Below the pieces are notes generated by a model. The model saw only the letters and a program-made list of their open reading frames with translations, was not told where the DNA came from and did not search any database. Positions 42,850 through 49,210 of a DNA stretch of 64,000 nt are shown here, piece after piece. Every line of letters starts with the position of its first letter. The stretch's first letter is position 1. Position numbers and translations under genes: made by a program. Origin of the DNA: Thermodesulfobacteriota bacterium (lineage in GTDB: Bacteria > Desulfobacterota > GWC2-55-46 > JADFVP01); NCBI GenBank assembly GCA_046754225.1, contig JBHHVI010000003.1, forward strand, positions 5,933 to 69,932, in the 5' to 3' direction.

Positions 42850-44325
42850 ATGACCGCGCTGAACACCATAGAGGTTAAAAGGATTTCCGAATATCTCTGG
42901 GAGGTGCCTAAAAGGGGCGACATGCTCGTTCCGGCGCGGATATACGCCGACAGGGAGACGGTTACACCCCTCATAGAGGAACTGGGCAGGGTAAAGACGG
43001 GCGGGTTCACACCGGCGCTGCGTCAGGTGGTGAACGTGGCCACGCTTCCCGGCATAGTAAAGGCCTCTCTCGCCATGGCCGACATCCACCCGGGTTACGG
43101 CTTCGCCATAGGCGGGGTGGGTGCCTTTGACATGGAGACGGGGGTTATAAGCGTGGCGGGCGTGGGGTTCGACATAAACTGCGGCGTCAGGGTCTTAAAG
43201 ACCCCGCTTAAGAGGAAAGACGTTGAGCCTAAAAAGGTAGACCTCGCCAACCAGATCTTCCGGGACGTCCCGGCCGGTGTGGGTTCCAGAGGAGAGATTC
43301 TGTTAAACGAGAAGGAGATAGACGAACTCCTCGTAAGGGGCTCGGCCTTTGTCGTTGAGAGGGGATACGGACTTCCCGAAGACCTCGAGTACACCGAGGA
43401 GCGGGGCGCCGTTAAAGGGGCGCGGCCCGGTAACGTCAGCCACAGGGCCAAAGAAAGGCAATTCCGTCAGGTGGGGACCCTGGGCTCGGGCAACCATTAC
43501 CTCGAGGTCCAGTACGTGGAGGAAATTTTTGATAACGCCGCCGCCCGTGTCTACGGCATAGAAAAAGACGGCATACTCATCGCAATACACTGCGGTAGCC
43601 GCGCCCTCGGCCACCAGATAGGAACCGATTACCTGAAGACCCTCGACGCGGCGAGCCGTAAATACGGCATACCCATAAGGGAGCGTGAGCTCGTATGCGC
43701 CCCCATAAAAAGCCCCGAGGGCCAAAAATATTTCAGCGCCGTAAACGCCGGCATTAACTGCGCCTTCGCCAACCGGCAGGCCATCTCGCATCTCGCCAGA
43801 GGTGCGTTGTCGAGGGTAATGGGCATAGAGCCTTCCGAGGTAAAACTCCTTTACGACGTGGCCCACAATACGTGCAAGGTGGAGACGCACGACGTTGACG
43901 GCGCCCAAAGAGAACTCATGGTCCACCGTAAGGGCGCAACGCGCGCCTTCGGGCCGGGCCGGGCCGAGATACCGGAAAAGTACAGGGCCGTGGGCCAGCC
44001 GCTACTCGTCGGCGGGACGATGGGCACGGCCTCTTACATTTTAAGGGGGACCGATAAGGGCATGAGGGACTGCTTCGGCAGCGCCGTACACGGCGCCGGA
44101 AGGGCCATGTCCAGGGTGAAGGCCAAAAGGACCTGGCGGGGCACGGAACTCATAAAGGAGCTCGAAGGAAAAGGGATAATCATCAGGTCGCGGTCCAAAT
44201 CGGGCGTGGCCGAAGAGGCCCCCGGCGCGTACAAGGACGTGGACAGGGTCGTCGACATAATGCACAACGCCGGGATAAACCAGAAGGTGGCGAGGCTCCG
44301 CCCCCTTTGCTGCGTCAAGGGGTAG
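42850..44325 (+). CDS. rtcB: RNA-splicing ligase RtcB (3'-phosphate/5'-OH RNA ligase)
   Basis: 491 aa; metal/GMP-binding motifs NCGVR, GSGNHY, HCGSR, VHRKGAT, HGAGR. Confidence 0.9.
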   Translation: MTALNTIEVKRISEYLWEVPKRGDMLVPARIYADRETVTPLIEELGRVKTGGFTPALRQVVNVATLPGIVKASLAMADIHPGYGFAIGGVGAFDMETGVISVAGVGFDINCGVRVLKTPLKRKDVEPKKVDLANQIFRDVPAGVGSRGEILLNEKEIDELLVRGSAFVVERGYGLPEDLEYTEERGAVKGARPGNVSHRAKERQFRQVGTLGSGNHYLEVQYVEEIFDNAAARVYGIEKDGILIAIHCGSRALGHQIGTDYLKTLDAASRKYGIPIRERELVCAPIKSPEGQKYFSAVNAGINCAFANRQAISHLARGALSRVMGIEPSEVKLLYDVAHNTCKVETHDVDGAQRELMVHRKGATRAFGPGRAEIPEKYRAVGQPLLVGGTMGTASYILRGTDKGMRDCFGSAVHGAGRAMSRVKAKRTWRGTELIKELEGKGIIIRSRSKSGVAEEAPGAYKDVDRVVDIMHNAGINQKVARLRPLCCVKG

Positions 44326-44593: not shown

Positions 44594-45454
44594 ATGAGCG
44601 ATTTTTCCAAAGAAGAACAACTACCCGGCGTTGTAATGCCGGAGTGCGACGTCCATAAAACCCTGAAGGGACAAAAGGCCCTCGTAACGGGAGCGAACTC
44701 GGGCATTGGAAAGGGCGTGGCAGTGGCGCTGGCAAAGGCCGGGGCAGACGTGGTCGTAAACTACGTCTCCGGGGAGGAGGCGGCCCTTGAGACGGCCGGG
44801 GAGATACGCGCCGCCGGCGTAAAATCCTATATACACGAAGCCGATGTATCAAGGGAGGACCATGTAGAGGCCATGTTCAAACGGATGAGAAGGGAGCTGG
44901 GCACAATCGACATACTCGTAAATAACGCGGGGCTCCAGAAGGACGCCCCCCTTACCGAGATGACGCTCAAGGACTGGAAGACCGTCCTTGACGTAAACCT
45001 TACGGGCCAGTTCCTATGCGCCCGCGAGGCGGTAAGGGAGTTCATGCGCCGGGGCGTGGTGAAGGAGGTCTCCTGCTCGGCGGGCAAGATTATCTGCGTC
45101 AGCTCCGTACATGAGGTAATCCCCTGGGCCGGACATGTAAACTACGCCGCTTCCAAGGGAGGCGTTATGCTCATGATGAAGAGCATCGCGCAGGAATGCG
45201 CCCCCCACCGTATCCGCGTCAACTCAATTTCTCCGGGCGCGGTGCGTACGCCCATAAACAGAGCCGCCTGGAGCACGCCCGAGGCGTACGAGTCGCTCAT
45301 GGAACTGGTCCCATACAAGAGGATAGGCGAGGTGGAGGACATAGGACGGGCCGTGGTATGGCTCGCCTCGGACCACGCCGACTATGTTAACGGTATAAGC
45401 CTTTATATAGACGGGGGCATGACGCTCTATCCGGGATTCTCAGAGGGAGGATGA
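44594..45454 (+). CDS. short-chain dehydrogenase/reductase (glucose 1-dehydrogenase-like)
   Basis: TGANSGIGKG cofactor motif, NNAG, and S...YxxxK catalytic triad (YAASK). Confidence 0.8.
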   Translation: MSDFSKEEQLPGVVMPECDVHKTLKGQKALVTGANSGIGKGVAVALAKAGADVVVNYVSGEEAALETAGEIRAAGVKSYIHEADVSREDHVEAMFKRMRRELGTIDILVNNAGLQKDAPLTEMTLKDWKTVLDVNLTGQFLCAREAVREFMRRGVVKEVSCSAGKIICVSSVHEVIPWAGHVNYAASKGGVMLMMKSIAQECAPHRIRVNSISPGAVRTPINRAAWSTPEAYESLMELVPYKRIGEVEDIGRAVVWLASDHADYVNGISLYIDGGMTLYPGFSEGG

Positions 45455-47280
45455 AAATGTATAAACCCATAAACGACTACGGCTTAATCGGCAACCTCGG
45501 CTCATGCGCACTTGTCGGGCTCGACGGCTCCATAGACTGGGCCTGCCTGCCCCATCTCGACTCCCCGGCCCTCTTCTCCGCCCTCCTTGATTCAAAAAAG
45601 GGGGGACGCTTTCAGATAGTCCCGGAAGGAAAATACAGCTCCTCTCAGGCCTATATGGAGGACACGAATATCCTTGAGACCACCTTCACCACACCCACGG
45701 GGGTGGTGACGATAACGGACTTCATGCCCTTTTTCGGAGAGGAGGAGGACCGCGAACGCCCCGTCATATACCGCGTGGTAAAAGGCGCAAGCGGCTTGGT
45801 GAAGCTCGATATTACCTTTGAGCCCCGTCTCGACTACGCCCGCGCCGAGACCAAACTTGCTGGAGATGATACAAAGGTCGTTGCCAAAGGAGGGGGGCAG
45901 TCAATCACGCTCACATCCGCCCGCCCAATAGCCATTAAGGGAGATGAGGCGGGCGGCTCCATTGAGATTAACCGTGGCGAAGAGGTTGTATTCGCCCTCG
46001 GTTACGGCTTGAGCCTCGATAACGCGCCGGAGGCCGCCGGGGCCCTTACAGCCACGGCCAGAAAGTGGACGGCGTGGGCGCACCGCTGCGAGGAGAGCAT
46101 GTGCGTATTCGGAGGCCCCTGGCACGCTCAGGTCGTGCGCTCGGCCTTTACCCTCAAGATGCTCACCCACAGCCACACCGGGGCCGTGGCCGCGGCGGCC
46201 ACGACATCTCTACCCGAAGAGATCGGGGGGGAGCGCAACTGGGACTACCGCTTCGCCTGGCTGAGGGACGCCTCCTTTACGGTGCAGGCGCTACATAACC
46301 TGGGGCACAGGGAAGAGGCGGAGGCCTTCCTCGCATGGTTCCAGCAGGCCATCTCCCCGCACGCCAGCCCATCGGAGATTCAAATCATGTATAGCCTGCA
46401 CGGAGAGACCACCCTCAAGGAGGAGGAACTCAAGCACCTCGAAGGGTACAGGGGGTCGCGCCCCGTAAGGATAGGGAACAAGGCCTCTGAGCAGCGCCAG
46501 CTCGATATCTACGGCGAGGTAATAGACGCCGCATATCAACTGACCCGCTACGGCTCCACCCTCGAAGCCGAGCACTGGCCCTTTATCTGTTCTCTCGCCG
46601 ATTATGTCAGCGGGGCGTGGAAAGAGAAGGACGCCGGGATATGGGAGGTACGCGGCGGGGTCGCCCACTTCGTATACTCAAAGGTTATGTGCTGGGTGGC
46701 CCTTGACCGGGCGGTGAAGTTAAGCAAAGTCCTCGGCCACGCGGGGGACGTGGAGCGCTGGTCCGCCGGGGCCGCGGCCATAAGGAAGGCCGTCCTTACC
46801 GAGGGGTACAACGACAGGGTCGGGGCCTTTGTCCAGTCCTTCGGCTCCGACGTGCTCGACGCATCGAACCTCCTTATCCCACTTGTGGGGTTTCTGCCCT
46901 TTGACGACGAGAGGGTAAAATCCACCATAGACGCCACGAAACGGGAATTGAGCGACGGGGCCTTCGTTCACCGCTACAGGGCCGATGACGGCCTTAAGGG
47001 AAATGAAGGGGCCTTTCTCCTGTGCTCCTTCTGGCTCATAGATTGTCTTACACTCTCGGGGAGAGTCGATGAGGCTATAGAGGCCTTTGAAAAAATCTCA
47101 AGCCACGCCAACCACCTCGGCCTCTTCGCCGAGGAGATAGACCCGGCCACGGGGGCGTTTCTCGGCAACTTCCCGCAGGCCTTCACCCACATAGGTTTCA
47201 TCAACAGCGCCCTCTACCTCGGAAGGGCCCTGGGAAAGGAGCAGATGGGCCCCAACCCCATGGGTTCGACGGGGGGTTGA
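45451..47280 (+). CDS. glycoside hydrolase family 15 (glucoamylase/trehalase-like)
   Basis: 609 aa; N-terminal beta-sandwich plus (alpha/alpha)6 catalytic domain with WDYRFAWLRDASF-type motifs; ATGA start/stop overlap with the SDR gene. Confidence 0.8.
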   Translation: MKMYKPINDYGLIGNLGSCALVGLDGSIDWACLPHLDSPALFSALLDSKKGGRFQIVPEGKYSSSQAYMEDTNILETTFTTPTGVVTITDFMPFFGEEEDRERPVIYRVVKGASGLVKLDITFEPRLDYARAETKLAGDDTKVVAKGGGQSITLTSARPIAIKGDEAGGSIEINRGEEVVFALGYGLSLDNAPEAAGALTATARKWTAWAHRCEESMCVFGGPWHAQVVRSAFTLKMLTHSHTGAVAAAATTSLPEEIGGERNWDYRFAWLRDASFTVQALHNLGHREEAEAFLAWFQQAISPHASPSEIQIMYSLHGETTLKEEELKHLEGYRGSRPVRIGNKASEQRQLDIYGEVIDAAYQLTRYGSTLEAEHWPFICSLADYVSGAWKEKDAGIWEVRGGVAHFVYSKVMCWVALDRAVKLSKVLGHAGDVERWSAGAAAIRKAVLTEGYNDRVGAFVQSFGSDVLDASNLLIPLVGFLPFDDERVKSTIDATKRELSDGAFVHRYRADDGLKGNEGAFLLCSFWLIDCLTLSGRVDEAIEAFEKISSHANHLGLFAEEIDPATGAFLGNFPQAFTHIGFINSALYLGRALGKEQMGPNPMGSTGG

Positions 47281-47503
47281 ACGGCTCACCCCCCCACCGG
47301 ATATGAAGAAGGTAAAGATAGCGTCTATCGAAAACTTTTTATTCGACGCCCGCCTCATTGGAAAGGGAAAGGGGTAAGGGTGGTATGCAACCTGTGCTCG
47401 ATGATTGCGATTTCCGCCAAAACGTTGTATGTTTTTTGATAATCAATGATGTAGGGCATTACCCGCCCTACGAAACTGTTACATTGTAAAGAATGATACT
47501 AAT

Positions 47504-48247
47504 ATGAGTAATTCATCAATTAGTGCAAATACCTTATTTCACTTCACAGACAGCATAGACAATCTTGTAGAGATATTAAGAAATGAATTTTCCCCGCACT
47601 ACAGTTTGGAAAATTTGGATCCTGTCTTAGGAGACGATTTCCAAATTGCACTACCAATGGTTTGTTTTTGTGACATTCCTCTTTCCCAAATTCATAATCA
47701 CATTGATATCTATGGACGCTATGCATTAGGTTTAACTAAAGACTGGGGAAAAAGAAATGGAATAAACCCTGTGTTATATACCTACAATGGAGCTACAATA
47801 GCTAATCACATTAGTTCTCTGGCGGGTCAGATAACCAGCGATTCTATTGGCAATTCTATTGATACCTTGCGTGATTTTTTTAATTTTATTAAACCCTATG
47901 AAGGAAAGTTATGGAGAAATGGGGCTTTTAAAAATGGAATACAATTTTATGATGAAAGAGAATGGAGATTTGTTCCGTCGATTGATGATGAGGATGGAAT
48001 CAAACGATATTTAAATAAAGAGATTTTTTTGGATAAAACCCGCAAAGACGAAGAAACACAGAAATTGAAAAGCAAAAAACTCTCTTTCGCACCTAACGAT
48101 ATAAAATATATAATTGTAGATAAGGAGAGTGAAATTTATGATATGGCTATCAAAATCGAAGATATTAAAATGAAGTTTCCGCTTAAACATGTAAAAATAC
48201 TCGTTACACGAATTATCTCTATGGAACATATAAAGGACGATTTTTAG
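47504..48247 (+). CDS. AT-rich orphan gene; AbiGi-like (putative abortive-infection family) hypothetical protein
   Basis: 247 aa ORF of roughly 33% GC embedded in ~60% GC DNA. The N-terminus SANTLFHFTDSIDNLVEILRNEF matches what I recall of the AbiGi family (PF10899). No AbiGii partner is present. Confidence 0.5.
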   Translation: MSNSSISANTLFHFTDSIDNLVEILRNEFSPHYSLENLDPVLGDDFQIALPMVCFCDIPLSQIHNHIDIYGRYALGLTKDWGKRNGINPVLYTYNGATIANHISSLAGQITSDSIGNSIDTLRDFFNFIKPYEGKLWRNGAFKNGIQFYDEREWRFVPSIDDEDGIKRYLNKEIFLDKTRKDEETQKLKSKKLSFAPNDIKYIIVDKESEIYDMAIKIEDIKMKFPLKHVKILVTRIISMEHIKDDF

Positions 48248-48295
48248 AAAATATGGAGCTGATTTCTTTCTTCAACACCCCCCCTCTTATGGTGT

Positions 48296-48330
48296 GAAAT
48301 CCCCCCCTCCCCCCCTTTAAAAAGGGGGGG
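48296..48330. terminator. G7/C7 homopolymer hairpin (CCCCCCC-TTTAAAAA-GGGGGGG), probable bidirectional terminator
   Basis: Perfect 7-bp G:C stem between convergent genes (AT-rich ORF on + and the zinc-ribbon ORF on -). Additional C7/C6 tracts lie on either side. Confidence 0.45.
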
Positions 48331-48341
48331 AGTAGACCCCC

Positions 48342-48515
48342 CTCAAAAATCCTCGGCCAGGTAGGGTTCGTCGGCCTTCTTCTTTAACTTCAAGGGGCAC
48401 TGGCAGTAGGGGCAGTAGACCTGCTCGCCCGTCTTCTCCTCGTCGGAGATGGGCACCTCGGCTGAGCACATGGGGCACTCCAGGTACCCTGAAAAGGTAT
48501 CCCTGTCGTATCCCA
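48342..48515 (-). CDS. small zinc-ribbon protein (57 aa; LysW-like fold, CPxC...CPxC)
   Basis: MGYDRDTFSGYLECPMCSAEVPISDEEKTGEQVYCPYCQCPLKLKKKADEPYLAEDF. Not in the ORF track (<60 aa). Its start lies 3 nt after the stop of the upstream gene on the same strand. Confidence 0.45.
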
Positions 48516-48518
48516 TCG

Positions 48519-48776
48519 TCAGCCCCCCGTCACCTTATAGACCTCGTCGTGCTCCCTGCCGTGCTCTATGAGCTTTATGCCCACGCTCACGCCCACCCCG
48601 GCCTCTTCCACGCTCTCGTGCTCTATCTGGATGGAATCGACCTTCTGGGTGAAATCAGAGGTGTGCCCCTTTACGTGGATGGTATCGCCTACCCTGAGGG
48701 GGCCGCCAAGGTCCACGGCCGCCACATTGAGATGCGTATAGTAATGGGTAATCGTCCCCACTCTCTCCTCTCCCAT
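48519..48776 (-). CDS. EF-Tu domain-2-like beta-barrel small protein
   Basis: 85 aa; resembles standalone translation-factor domain-2 proteins; translationally coupled to the downstream zinc-ribbon ORF. Confidence 0.45.
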   Translation of the reverse strand: MGEERVGTITHYYTHLNVAAVDLGGPLRVGDTIHVKGHTSDFTQKVDSIQIEHESVEEAGVGVSVGIKLIEHGREHDEVYKVTGG

Positions 48777-48982
48777 AGTACCCTCCTTTTATAAAAGGTT
48801 AAGACAAAAGGATTTACGGTTTTCCCTATTCTACTCTGAACGCCCCCTTTGTCAAGACGCCGGTAAAAATTTCCACTTGACGGGAGCGGACAAAAAAAGG
48901 AGAATTATATAAGGGCTTTTAACCTGAAAAACTTGTCCCCAAAAACTATAACCGGCACGATAACCGGTAAAAAAACAGGACC

Positions 48983-49210
48983 GTGTACAGAAGAGAAATA
49001 AGAAAATTATACCTTTCCGTGGGAGAAGAGGTAATTCACACAGGCCACCCCGAATGGGGCTCAGGAAGGGTAGTGGAGGAGATGAACTCCACCGTGGCCG
49101 GCGGGATGAGCATGGTGAGGATTGAATTCCACCACGGAGGGAACAAGACCTTCGATAACAACCTGTCGAGCCTCTGGTGCTGCTACCACGCGGGAATCAG
49201 GAAAGTATAG
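48983..49210 (+). CDS. DUF3553-like small protein
   Basis: Pattern V.H...PEWG.G.V.......V.F..GG.K......L..L matches DUF3553. Both candidate starts (48983, 49019) are GTG, so the start is uncertain. Confidence 0.35.
   Translation: MYRREIRKLYLSVGEEVIHTGHPEWGSGRVVEEMNSTVAGGMSMVRIEFHHGGNKTFDNNLSSLWCCYHAGIRKV

Follow-up and report, generated by a model that had tools for sequence, protein, structure and literature searches.

We analysed a 64,000-nucleotide (nt) stretch of contig JBHHVI010000003.1 (positions 5,933 to 69,932, forward strand; in the following called the window) from a metagenome-assembled genome (MAG) of a Thermodesulfobacteriota bacterium. Here, a single-gene cassette of approximately 0.9 kb and low GC content is inserted in the spacer between a glycoside hydrolase family 15 (GH15) gene and a convergent Zn-ribbon gene. 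The cassette was very probably acquired recently by horizontal transfer. Its gene codes for a protein of 247 amino acids (aa) that belongs to the AbiGi family, AbiGi being one of the two proteins, AbiGi and AbiGii, of the lactococcal abortive-infection system AbiG. It is almost certainly a member of a standalone AbiGi clade, and the predicted fold of the protein is in all likelihood ADP-ribosyltransferase (ART)-like. On balance, we favour the explanation that the acquired cassette encodes a solo, DarT-like abortive-infection effector with an ART fold.

The GC content in 300-nt windows fell from 0.56–0.63 upstream of the islet to 0.30–0.39 at approximately 47350–48400 and was back at 0.57–0.60 by 48250–48700; in the sequence itself the low-GC run starts near position 47420. 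These values bear out a first-pass annotation of the same DNA, which had described a collapse of the GC content over about 1 kb with quick recovery and an islet of one gene. The AbiGi gene is indeed the only substantial open reading frame (ORF) in the low-GC stretch and lies in a GH15 to Zn-ribbon spacer of 1,062 bp. A comparison of GC content and codon usage set it clearly apart from its surroundings: its GC content is 0.328 and that of its third codon positions (GC3) 0.29, compared with a GC3 of 0.68–0.83 in the nine surrounding genes. Of the 57 ORFs in the window that are 90 aa or longer it is the sole strong GC3 outlier, as 55 others have values between 0.57 and 0.77 and one has a value of 0.49. 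The rest of the window represents an ordinary housekeeping chromosome with genes for citrate synthase, MetRS, TatD, DNA polymerase III delta', RtcB, iPGM and LapB.

The horizontal acquisition proposed in the first-pass annotation was supported by a comparison of orthologous loci. The islet is absent from the contigs of four relatives (L090, L098, L099 and L100), in which a GH15 gene, 65–69% identical to that of the window, is followed within 212–376 bp by the convergent Zn-ribbon orthologue and no AbiGi gene is present. In L090 and L099 the Zn-ribbon gene is followed by iPGM and LapB genes as in the window, while the contig of L100 breaks off in iPGM and that of L098 in an unidentified ORF. 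The closest relative (L088), whose GH15 is 87% identical, carries a different plus-strand ORF at the position of the AbiGi gene, starting 89 nt after GH15. Since this spacer holds a different ORF in L088, it might be a spot for variable cargo. The alternative ORF (MKTATVEKILGGKKALQMKIKDRMDFVTLSDRGVSKGSLLHLAKFFN..., L088:2961-3190, orthologous to the window from about 47281 onward) is cut by the contig end, and its 47-aa fragment had no match in Pfam or NCBIfam.

A second strain (L001) is represented by a 966-bp contig from another sequencing run, which matches positions 47428–48388 of the window. There were no differences in the 820 nt comprising the upstream region and the coding sequence. 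The identity extends up to position 48284, and the first difference occurs at 48285. All 10 differences in the spacer, which are substitutions or indels including a change in homopolymer length (G7 to G8), fall within the 40 nt at 48285–48324, and a further three were found in 46 nt of the host Zn-ribbon gene. The cassette is therefore far more conserved than the adjoining host DNA, and its right edge must be located between 48248 and 48285. Taken together, the deviating GC3, the four relatives with an empty site, the different occupant of the site in L088 and the identical cassette next to diverged host DNA in L001 argue for horizontal acquisition.

Similar islets are present in other organisms. 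Single-gene low-GC patches were found in 25 other hosts, chosen because the GC content of the gene was at least 8 points below that of the flanks, with a median length of approximately 910 bp (range 723–1,396 bp). These islets barely exceed the gene, the median extension being 50 nt upstream and 15 nt downstream. In most loci the gene is poorer in GC than its flanks, the median difference being about 6 points. The search for a donor gave no result: the best relatives are only 59–63% identical, and an exact 28-mer from the upstream region was absent in the JGI metagenomes. A phage origin was rejected, as tblastn yielded no match in 50,697 phage records and no viral structure matched the protein significantly.

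The assignment to AbiGi made in the first-pass annotation proved to be correct and strong. The protein scored 146.9 bits against Pfam AbiGi (PF10899; cutoff 22.4, E = 9e-43) and matched the PADLOC AbiGi model (PDLC02331) over nearly its full length (E = 4.8e-53; protein residues 3–247, model positions 12–260 of 260). Against the NCBIfam equivalog model for lactococcal AbiGI (NF042957) it reached 70.2 bits, below the cutoff of 300; thus, it is a member of the AbiGi family but not an orthologue of the characterised lactococcal AbiGI. AbiGi was the sole scoring family in a Pfam scan of the protein, with no match to DarT (E ≤ 10) or to HEPN. A family-level annotation of the gene already existed, since the very same protein, from a MAG contig of 79.5 kb, is entered at NCBI as 'abortive infection system antitoxin AbiGi family protein [Thermodesulfobacteriota bacterium]', and for this genome alone it is an ordinary, recently acquired accessory gene.

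All family-invariant residues (E36, F55, C56, D57, H66, Y70, G71, K79, Y92, K130, D150, E151, E153, W154 and R155) are kept in the protein. Three sites stand out as candidates for ART motifs I ([H/R]), II ([Y/SxS]) and III ([E/ExE]) (see Table 1), the assignment of the latter two being inferred. Within the candidate motif I, residues L11, F12 and T15 are invariant among 60 homologues, and H13 and F14 each reach a conservation of 90% or more. The candidate motif II tyrosine, Y70, and the adjacent G71 do not vary in either the solo clade or the canonical paired AbiGi proteins. In the ExE-type candidate for motif III, Y149, E151, E153, W154 and R155 are invariant among the 60 homologues, and D150, E151, E153, W154 and R155 across solo and canonical AbiGi proteins; according to the secondary structure, a beta-strand starts at E153. 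The strings SISANTLFHFT...NLVEIL and RNEFSPH given in the first-pass annotation are both present in the protein. However, the R-x5-H stretch in the latter, for which a HEPN-like motif had been suggested, is not a conserved motif: close homologues have K, I, V or T in place of R26 and N or R in place of H32. A HEPN domain was rejected for this reason, and also because the predicted fold is of the alpha/beta, ART-like type and HEPN gave no Pfam match.

Among the longer family members, P0299 (550 aa) looks like a tandem double AbiGi, P0287 (377 aa) is extended at the N-terminus by about 120 aa, and P0334, P0339, P0347, P0354 and P0368 (290–309 aa) show two matched stretches with an insertion that splits the domain.

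To search for AbiGii, a hidden Markov model (HMM) was built from four genuine paired partners; it recovers just its own seeds. At E ≤ 10 this HMM detected nothing in the six frames of the window, in agreement with the first-pass annotation, which had noted the absence of AbiGii. Nor did it detect AbiGii or a fragment of it at the same threshold in any of 162 homologous loci, 82 of them from species genomes and 80 from metagenomes. A hidden AbiGii partner was rejected on these grounds. By contrast, the plasmid-borne AbiGi proteins examined from Lactococcus, Streptococcus, Bacillus and Escherichia coli, which are 27–32% identical to the protein described here, are each directly followed by a protein of about 400 aa. 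This partner is annotated as AbiGII or AbiGii in three of the four plasmids and as hypothetical in the E. coli plasmid.

All-against-all clustering of two genes on each side in the 82 species-genome loci revealed no recurrent neighbour family; the few clusters that did form were small and consisted of genes of closely related Syntrophomonas genomes. When 140 immediate neighbours were scanned with Pfam and PADLOC, they matched 152 different Pfam families, mostly of housekeeping genes. Another conserved protein partner was therefore also rejected. A minority of the neighbours of solo genes are defence genes, with matches to Shedu-like proteins, AbiJ, PD-T4-6, PtuA and DRT reverse transcriptases, and the solo AbiGi gene of Clostridium perfringens adjoins a type I restriction-modification system. 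Of the scanned species genomes, 551 carry relatives, which are only about 40–45% identical, and their hosts range from Saccharibacteria to Bacteroidota, Clostridia, Acidobacteriota and Methanoperedens archaea. An exhaustive profile search returned 4,377 clusters at 50% identity, and among the 150 top matches listed almost all are 240–290 aa long. The solo proteins are collinear with the paired AbiGi proteins and have gained no extra domain. These data support and generalise the idea of a standalone variant put forward in the first-pass annotation. Its term 'orphan' is misleading, because the whole clade is solo and the gene is a typical member of it.

Lactococcal AbiG of the plasmid pCI750 type differs from the gene described here in that it has an AbiGii partner and is plasmid-borne, whereas the solo gene is located on the chromosome in a Thermodesulfobacteriota MAG. 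The AbiGi homology extends over the full length of the proteins, and the invariant residues E36, F55-C56-D57, H66, Y70-G71, K79, Y92, K130 and D150-E151-x-E153-W-R are common to both. Compared with lactococcal AbiGI, the solo protein has a shorter N-terminus and has kept the histidine of motif I. This residue is N or K (LFNFM, LFKFM) in the paired AbiGI proteins of Lactococcus, Streptococcus and Bacillus (L094:2944-3825, L096:2950-3843 and L097:2920-3759), while the paired AbiGi of the E. coli plasmid (L095:2956-3777) and, at a conservation of at least 90%, the sampled solo-clade proteins keep the histidine. The ExE motif is invariant in the paired Gram-positive, the paired E. coli and the solo proteins.

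In the comparison of the predicted fold, the nearest structures were consistently DarT DNA ARTs, and the protein is predicted to be closest to DarT, keeping the residue set H13, Y70 and E151-x-E153. HMMER aligned the N-terminal motif to E. coli C7 DarT1 (8baq) with H13 opposite the histidine of the DarT 'HFT'. An hhalign comparison with the DarT profile gave a P value of about 1e-3 over only 38 columns, with a probability of 22%. Beyond this N-terminal motif, Pfam, HMMER and hhalign detected no significant match to DarT. The protein also differs from DarT of DarTG systems in several respects. It does not match Pfam DarT (PF14487), there is no conserved arginine at the position matching that of the DarT 'RLDG', and AbiGi has the ExE motif as well as about 90 additional residues of alpha/beta structure at the C-terminus. 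No DarG macrodomain antitoxin was seen adjacent to the gene, either among the neighbours in the window, where GH15 and Zn-ribbon genes form the flanks, or among the neighbours in the homologous loci. AbiGi (PF10899) has been listed as an ART family, and DUF2971 and DarT have been described as similar to it (bioRxiv 10.1101/2024.07.30.605764). By profile methods, DUF2971 and the ART-like Lsan_2474 are the nearest sequence relatives of AbiGi in the ART superfamily (bioRxiv 10.1101/2024.07.30.605764); these are separate Pfam families, and the protein described here scores to AbiGi only. The fifth-best structural match of AbiGi was the RNA 2'-phosphotransferase Tpt1, and an RtcB RNA ligase gene is located 3 kb upstream (42850–44325). 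The proximity of RtcB to an ART-fold gene is probably a coincidence, because AbiGi is absent from the relatives, and those examined carry different genes upstream of GH15.

Two structured elements flank the gene (Table 1). Both had been described in the first-pass annotation, and the upstream GTAGGGC-N7-GCCCTAC repeat was recovered exactly, as were the downstream G7/C7 hairpin, in the form of a perfect palindrome, and the additional C-tracts, which cluster around it. As an RNA hairpin the upstream inverted repeat folds modestly better than shuffled sequences (z = -1.8; 8 of 200 shuffles fold as well), and it is identical in L001. It may have a regulatory role as an operator or as a hairpin in the 5'-untranslated region, which is speculation. 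The 111-nt spacer with the palindrome has a folding energy of -31.8 kcal/mol (z = -2.3). In the window there are 21 C7 tracts where about 40 would be expected by chance, so that such tracts are not a genome-wide habit; five of them lie at the edges of the islet (47289, 48278, 48301, 48309 and 48324). Since a terminator-like hairpin directly follows the stop codon of the Zn-ribbon gene and the region varies between strains, we assign the downstream hairpin region mainly to the convergent-terminator spacer of the host.

Calling the islet 'repeat-bounded', as in the first-pass annotation, is misleading, for the two hairpins are separate local structures and do not form a convincing pair of direct or inverted flanking repeats. 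The best candidates for flanking repeats were 11–19 nt long with 72–91% identity, within the range of 118 inverted pairs that arise by chance, and a target-site duplication was rejected as well, as nothing exceeded chance. An inverted 10/11-nt pair, GGGGGGTTGAA (47271–47281) and TTCAACACCCC (48271–48281), brackets the islet at a distance of exactly 1,000 bp. Its left arm overlaps the stop codon of GH15, and the GTTGAAC within it fits the integron core consensus GTTRRRY. The reading as an integron cassette does not generalise: an attC-like R''...R' pair was present downstream in five of 135 loci, compared with 1.6 expected. A transposon, a miniature inverted-repeat transposable element or an integron-cassette unit was rejected, as the repeats are at chance level and both adjacent genes are housekeeping genes with no recombinase. 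The islet contains neither an Rfam family nor a tandem-repeat array of the ToxI type.

Table 1. Positions in the window of the cassette, its gene and motifs, the structured elements and the flanking host genes.
Feature	Position	Strand	Basis
Low-GC cassette, very probably acquired horizontally (estimated extent, approximate edges)	47420..48285		GC profile and L001 identity boundary
Standalone AbiGi-family gene, 247 aa, predicted ADP-ribosyltransferase-like fold	47504..48247	+	
Candidate motif I, L-F-H-F-T, residues 11–15 (H13), aligning with DarT 'HFT'	47534..47548	+	Conservation, HMMER, hhalign
RNEFSPH (R26...H32), R-x5-H of the first-pass annotation, not a conserved motif	47579..47599	+	Varies in close homologues
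Y70-G71, candidate ART motif II tyrosine (assignment inferred)	47711..47716	+	Invariant in solo clade and canonical paired AbiGi
Y-D-E-R-E-W-R, residues 149–155, ExE-type motif III candidate	47948..47968	+	Invariance, secondary structure
Inverted repeat GTAGGGC-N7-GCCCTAC, 32 nt before the start codon	47451..47471	+	Exact match; forms predicted hairpin
Cluster of C7/G7 tracts, hypervariable between strains	48278..48330		4 of the 21 C7 tracts in the window; L001 differences
Perfect C7/G7 palindrome with 12-nt arms, CTCCCCCCCTTT/AAAGGGGGGGAG, in the convergent intergenic spacer	48307..48332		Repeat search
Hairpin resembling a terminator, GGGGGG-TCTACT-CCCCCC and then CTTTTT, immediately past the Zn-ribbon stop codon	48325..48342	-	Terminator scan
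Left flank of the insertion site, host GH15 glycoside hydrolase	45451..47280	+	Pfam Glyco_hydro_15 2e-78; orthologues 65–87% identical in relatives
Right flank, host 57-aa Zn-ribbon gene, convergent with AbiGi	48343..48516	-	Orthologues in L090, L098, L099 and L100

The flanks agree with the sugar-metabolism and small-protein genes named in the first-pass annotation. Upstream of the islet, a short-chain dehydrogenase/reductase gene forms a pair with the glucoamylase/trehalase-like GH15 gene, and downstream the small Zn-ribbon gene is accompanied by EF-Tu-domain-2-like and DUF3553 genes. The EF-Tu-domain-2-like gene (85 aa; 48519–48776, minus strand) and the DUF3553 gene (48983–49210, plus strand) lie between the Zn-ribbon gene and iPGM; in L090 and L099, unlike in the window, iPGM directly follows the Zn-ribbon gene. 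The GC content also dips to 0.45–0.47 at 48700–49150, so that a second small variable segment may be present here. The empty-site spacers L090:7867-8137 and L099:7822-8197 are AT-rich (35–44% GC), are not conserved between each other and have internal direct repeats of their own; in L090 a unit of approximately 80 bp is duplicated (GGAAAAAAGAAA...CATAAACTTT). A PADLOC scan of the window also yielded matches to MzaA (3.5e-48), mad3 (2e-31, two ORFs), QatD (2e-21), AriA (3e-17, two ORFs) and mad8 (6e-12, two ORFs), which probably stem from housekeeping paralogues, for instance ABC ATPases or TatD.

The missing partner could also mean that the gene is an orphan antitoxin, i.e. an 'anti-addiction' remnant that has lost its AbiGii toxin or that neutralises incoming toxins of the AbiGii type. 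The names used by Pfam and NCBI say 'antitoxin', and lactococcal abiGi alone was not toxic in E. coli (PMC3985639). However, the 'antitoxin' label is a prediction, and in the same experiment abiGii expressed alone was not toxic either, a result that is compatible with the need for a trigger. Moreover, the clade is solo throughout, and the HMM found no AbiGii in 162 loci from many phyla; repeated recent loss of a toxin gene would hardly give this picture. The predicted fold is enzyme-like and carries invariant candidate catalytic residues, and the solo proteins are collinear with the paired ones. We therefore regard an orphan antitoxin as improbable. A protein with an ART fold might also have another function and be an NAD+-depleting NADase, a protein-modifying ART, an enzyme resembling RNA 2'-phosphotransferases or a non-catalytic sensor, related to defence or not. 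Such a function appears rather unlikely to us: the nearest structures were consistently those of DarT DNA ARTs, and the sporadic, cross-phylum and compositionally foreign distribution is that of a conflict gene and not of a housekeeping enzyme. The gene is also absent from close relatives of the host.

An ART effector should need restraint, and one might suspect that the gene encodes a toxin and that the matching antitoxin, either a small ORF or an RNA of type I or III, was missed in the hairpin and C-tract DNA. Structured elements are present on both sides of the gene, and the upstream one is unchanged in the second strain. On the other hand, the islet lacks Rfam matches and ToxI-type arrays, no neighbour is conserved in the 82 loci, the islets elsewhere are scarcely longer than the gene and the hypervariable downstream C-tracts read as the terminator of a host gene. 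We regard a missed antitoxin as improbable, too. Finally, the gene might be a functionless passenger of a recent transfer, neutral or decaying. Its composition is extremely unameliorated, no promoter-like site was detected upstream and relatives do not have it. But the reading frame is unbroken and none of the family-invariant residues has been lost, and the cassette is identical in L001 despite the divergence of the adjoining host DNA, which makes this explanation highly improbable.

For a solo DarT-like effector of the abortive-infection type, we propose the following course of events. The protein would be self-contained and held inactive in uninfected cells, and a phage component would activate it. 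In the case of lactococcal AbiG this component is the major tail protein of the phage, and the system hinders phage transcription and replication (PMC13064643, PMC12184496). Once activated, the protein might use NAD+ to ADP-ribosylate nucleic acid or, less probably, protein, and this modification would block transcription or replication of the phage. That ARTs acting on DNA or mRNA can serve in phage defence is shown by DarTG and CmdTAC (PMC11618068 and references cited there). CmdT offers a precedent of an ART effector that aborts infection by modification of mRNA in response to a phage structural protein (PMC11618068). It works in a three-gene toxin-antitoxin-chaperone system, whereas the AbiGi gene is alone, and no specific homology between the two was seen, though no test was aimed at it. 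That the protein is an ADP-ribosylating anti-phage effector is our tentative proposal, which we hold to be possible although not quite probable.

AbiG belongs to the small number of classical lactococcal abortive-infection systems that still lack a mechanism, and according to a 2026 review it does not resemble known proteins. AbiGi homologues are automatically annotated as 'antitoxin' by the thousands, a label that is probably misleading. What the present analysis adds is a picture at the level of the clade: always solo, carried on a compositionally foreign cassette of approximately 0.9 kb, with a predicted DarT-like fold and a conserved H/Y/ExE set. A bolder reading, which we regard as doubtful, is that solo AbiGi proteins represent a widespread and previously unrecognised class of single-protein anti-phage defence, namely self-regulated DarT-like ARTs without antitoxin that cross bacterial and archaeal phyla as bare 0.9-kb cassettes without a recognisable mobility gene. 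If this were true, the database name would have the roles the wrong way round, with AbiGi as the enzymatic effector of AbiG systems and not as their antitoxin. The picture at the level of the clade raises the question of how such an effector stays harmless in the absence of an antitoxin, and it turns an opaque annotation into a directly testable hypothesis, the NAD+-dependent modification of nucleic acids by a single protein.

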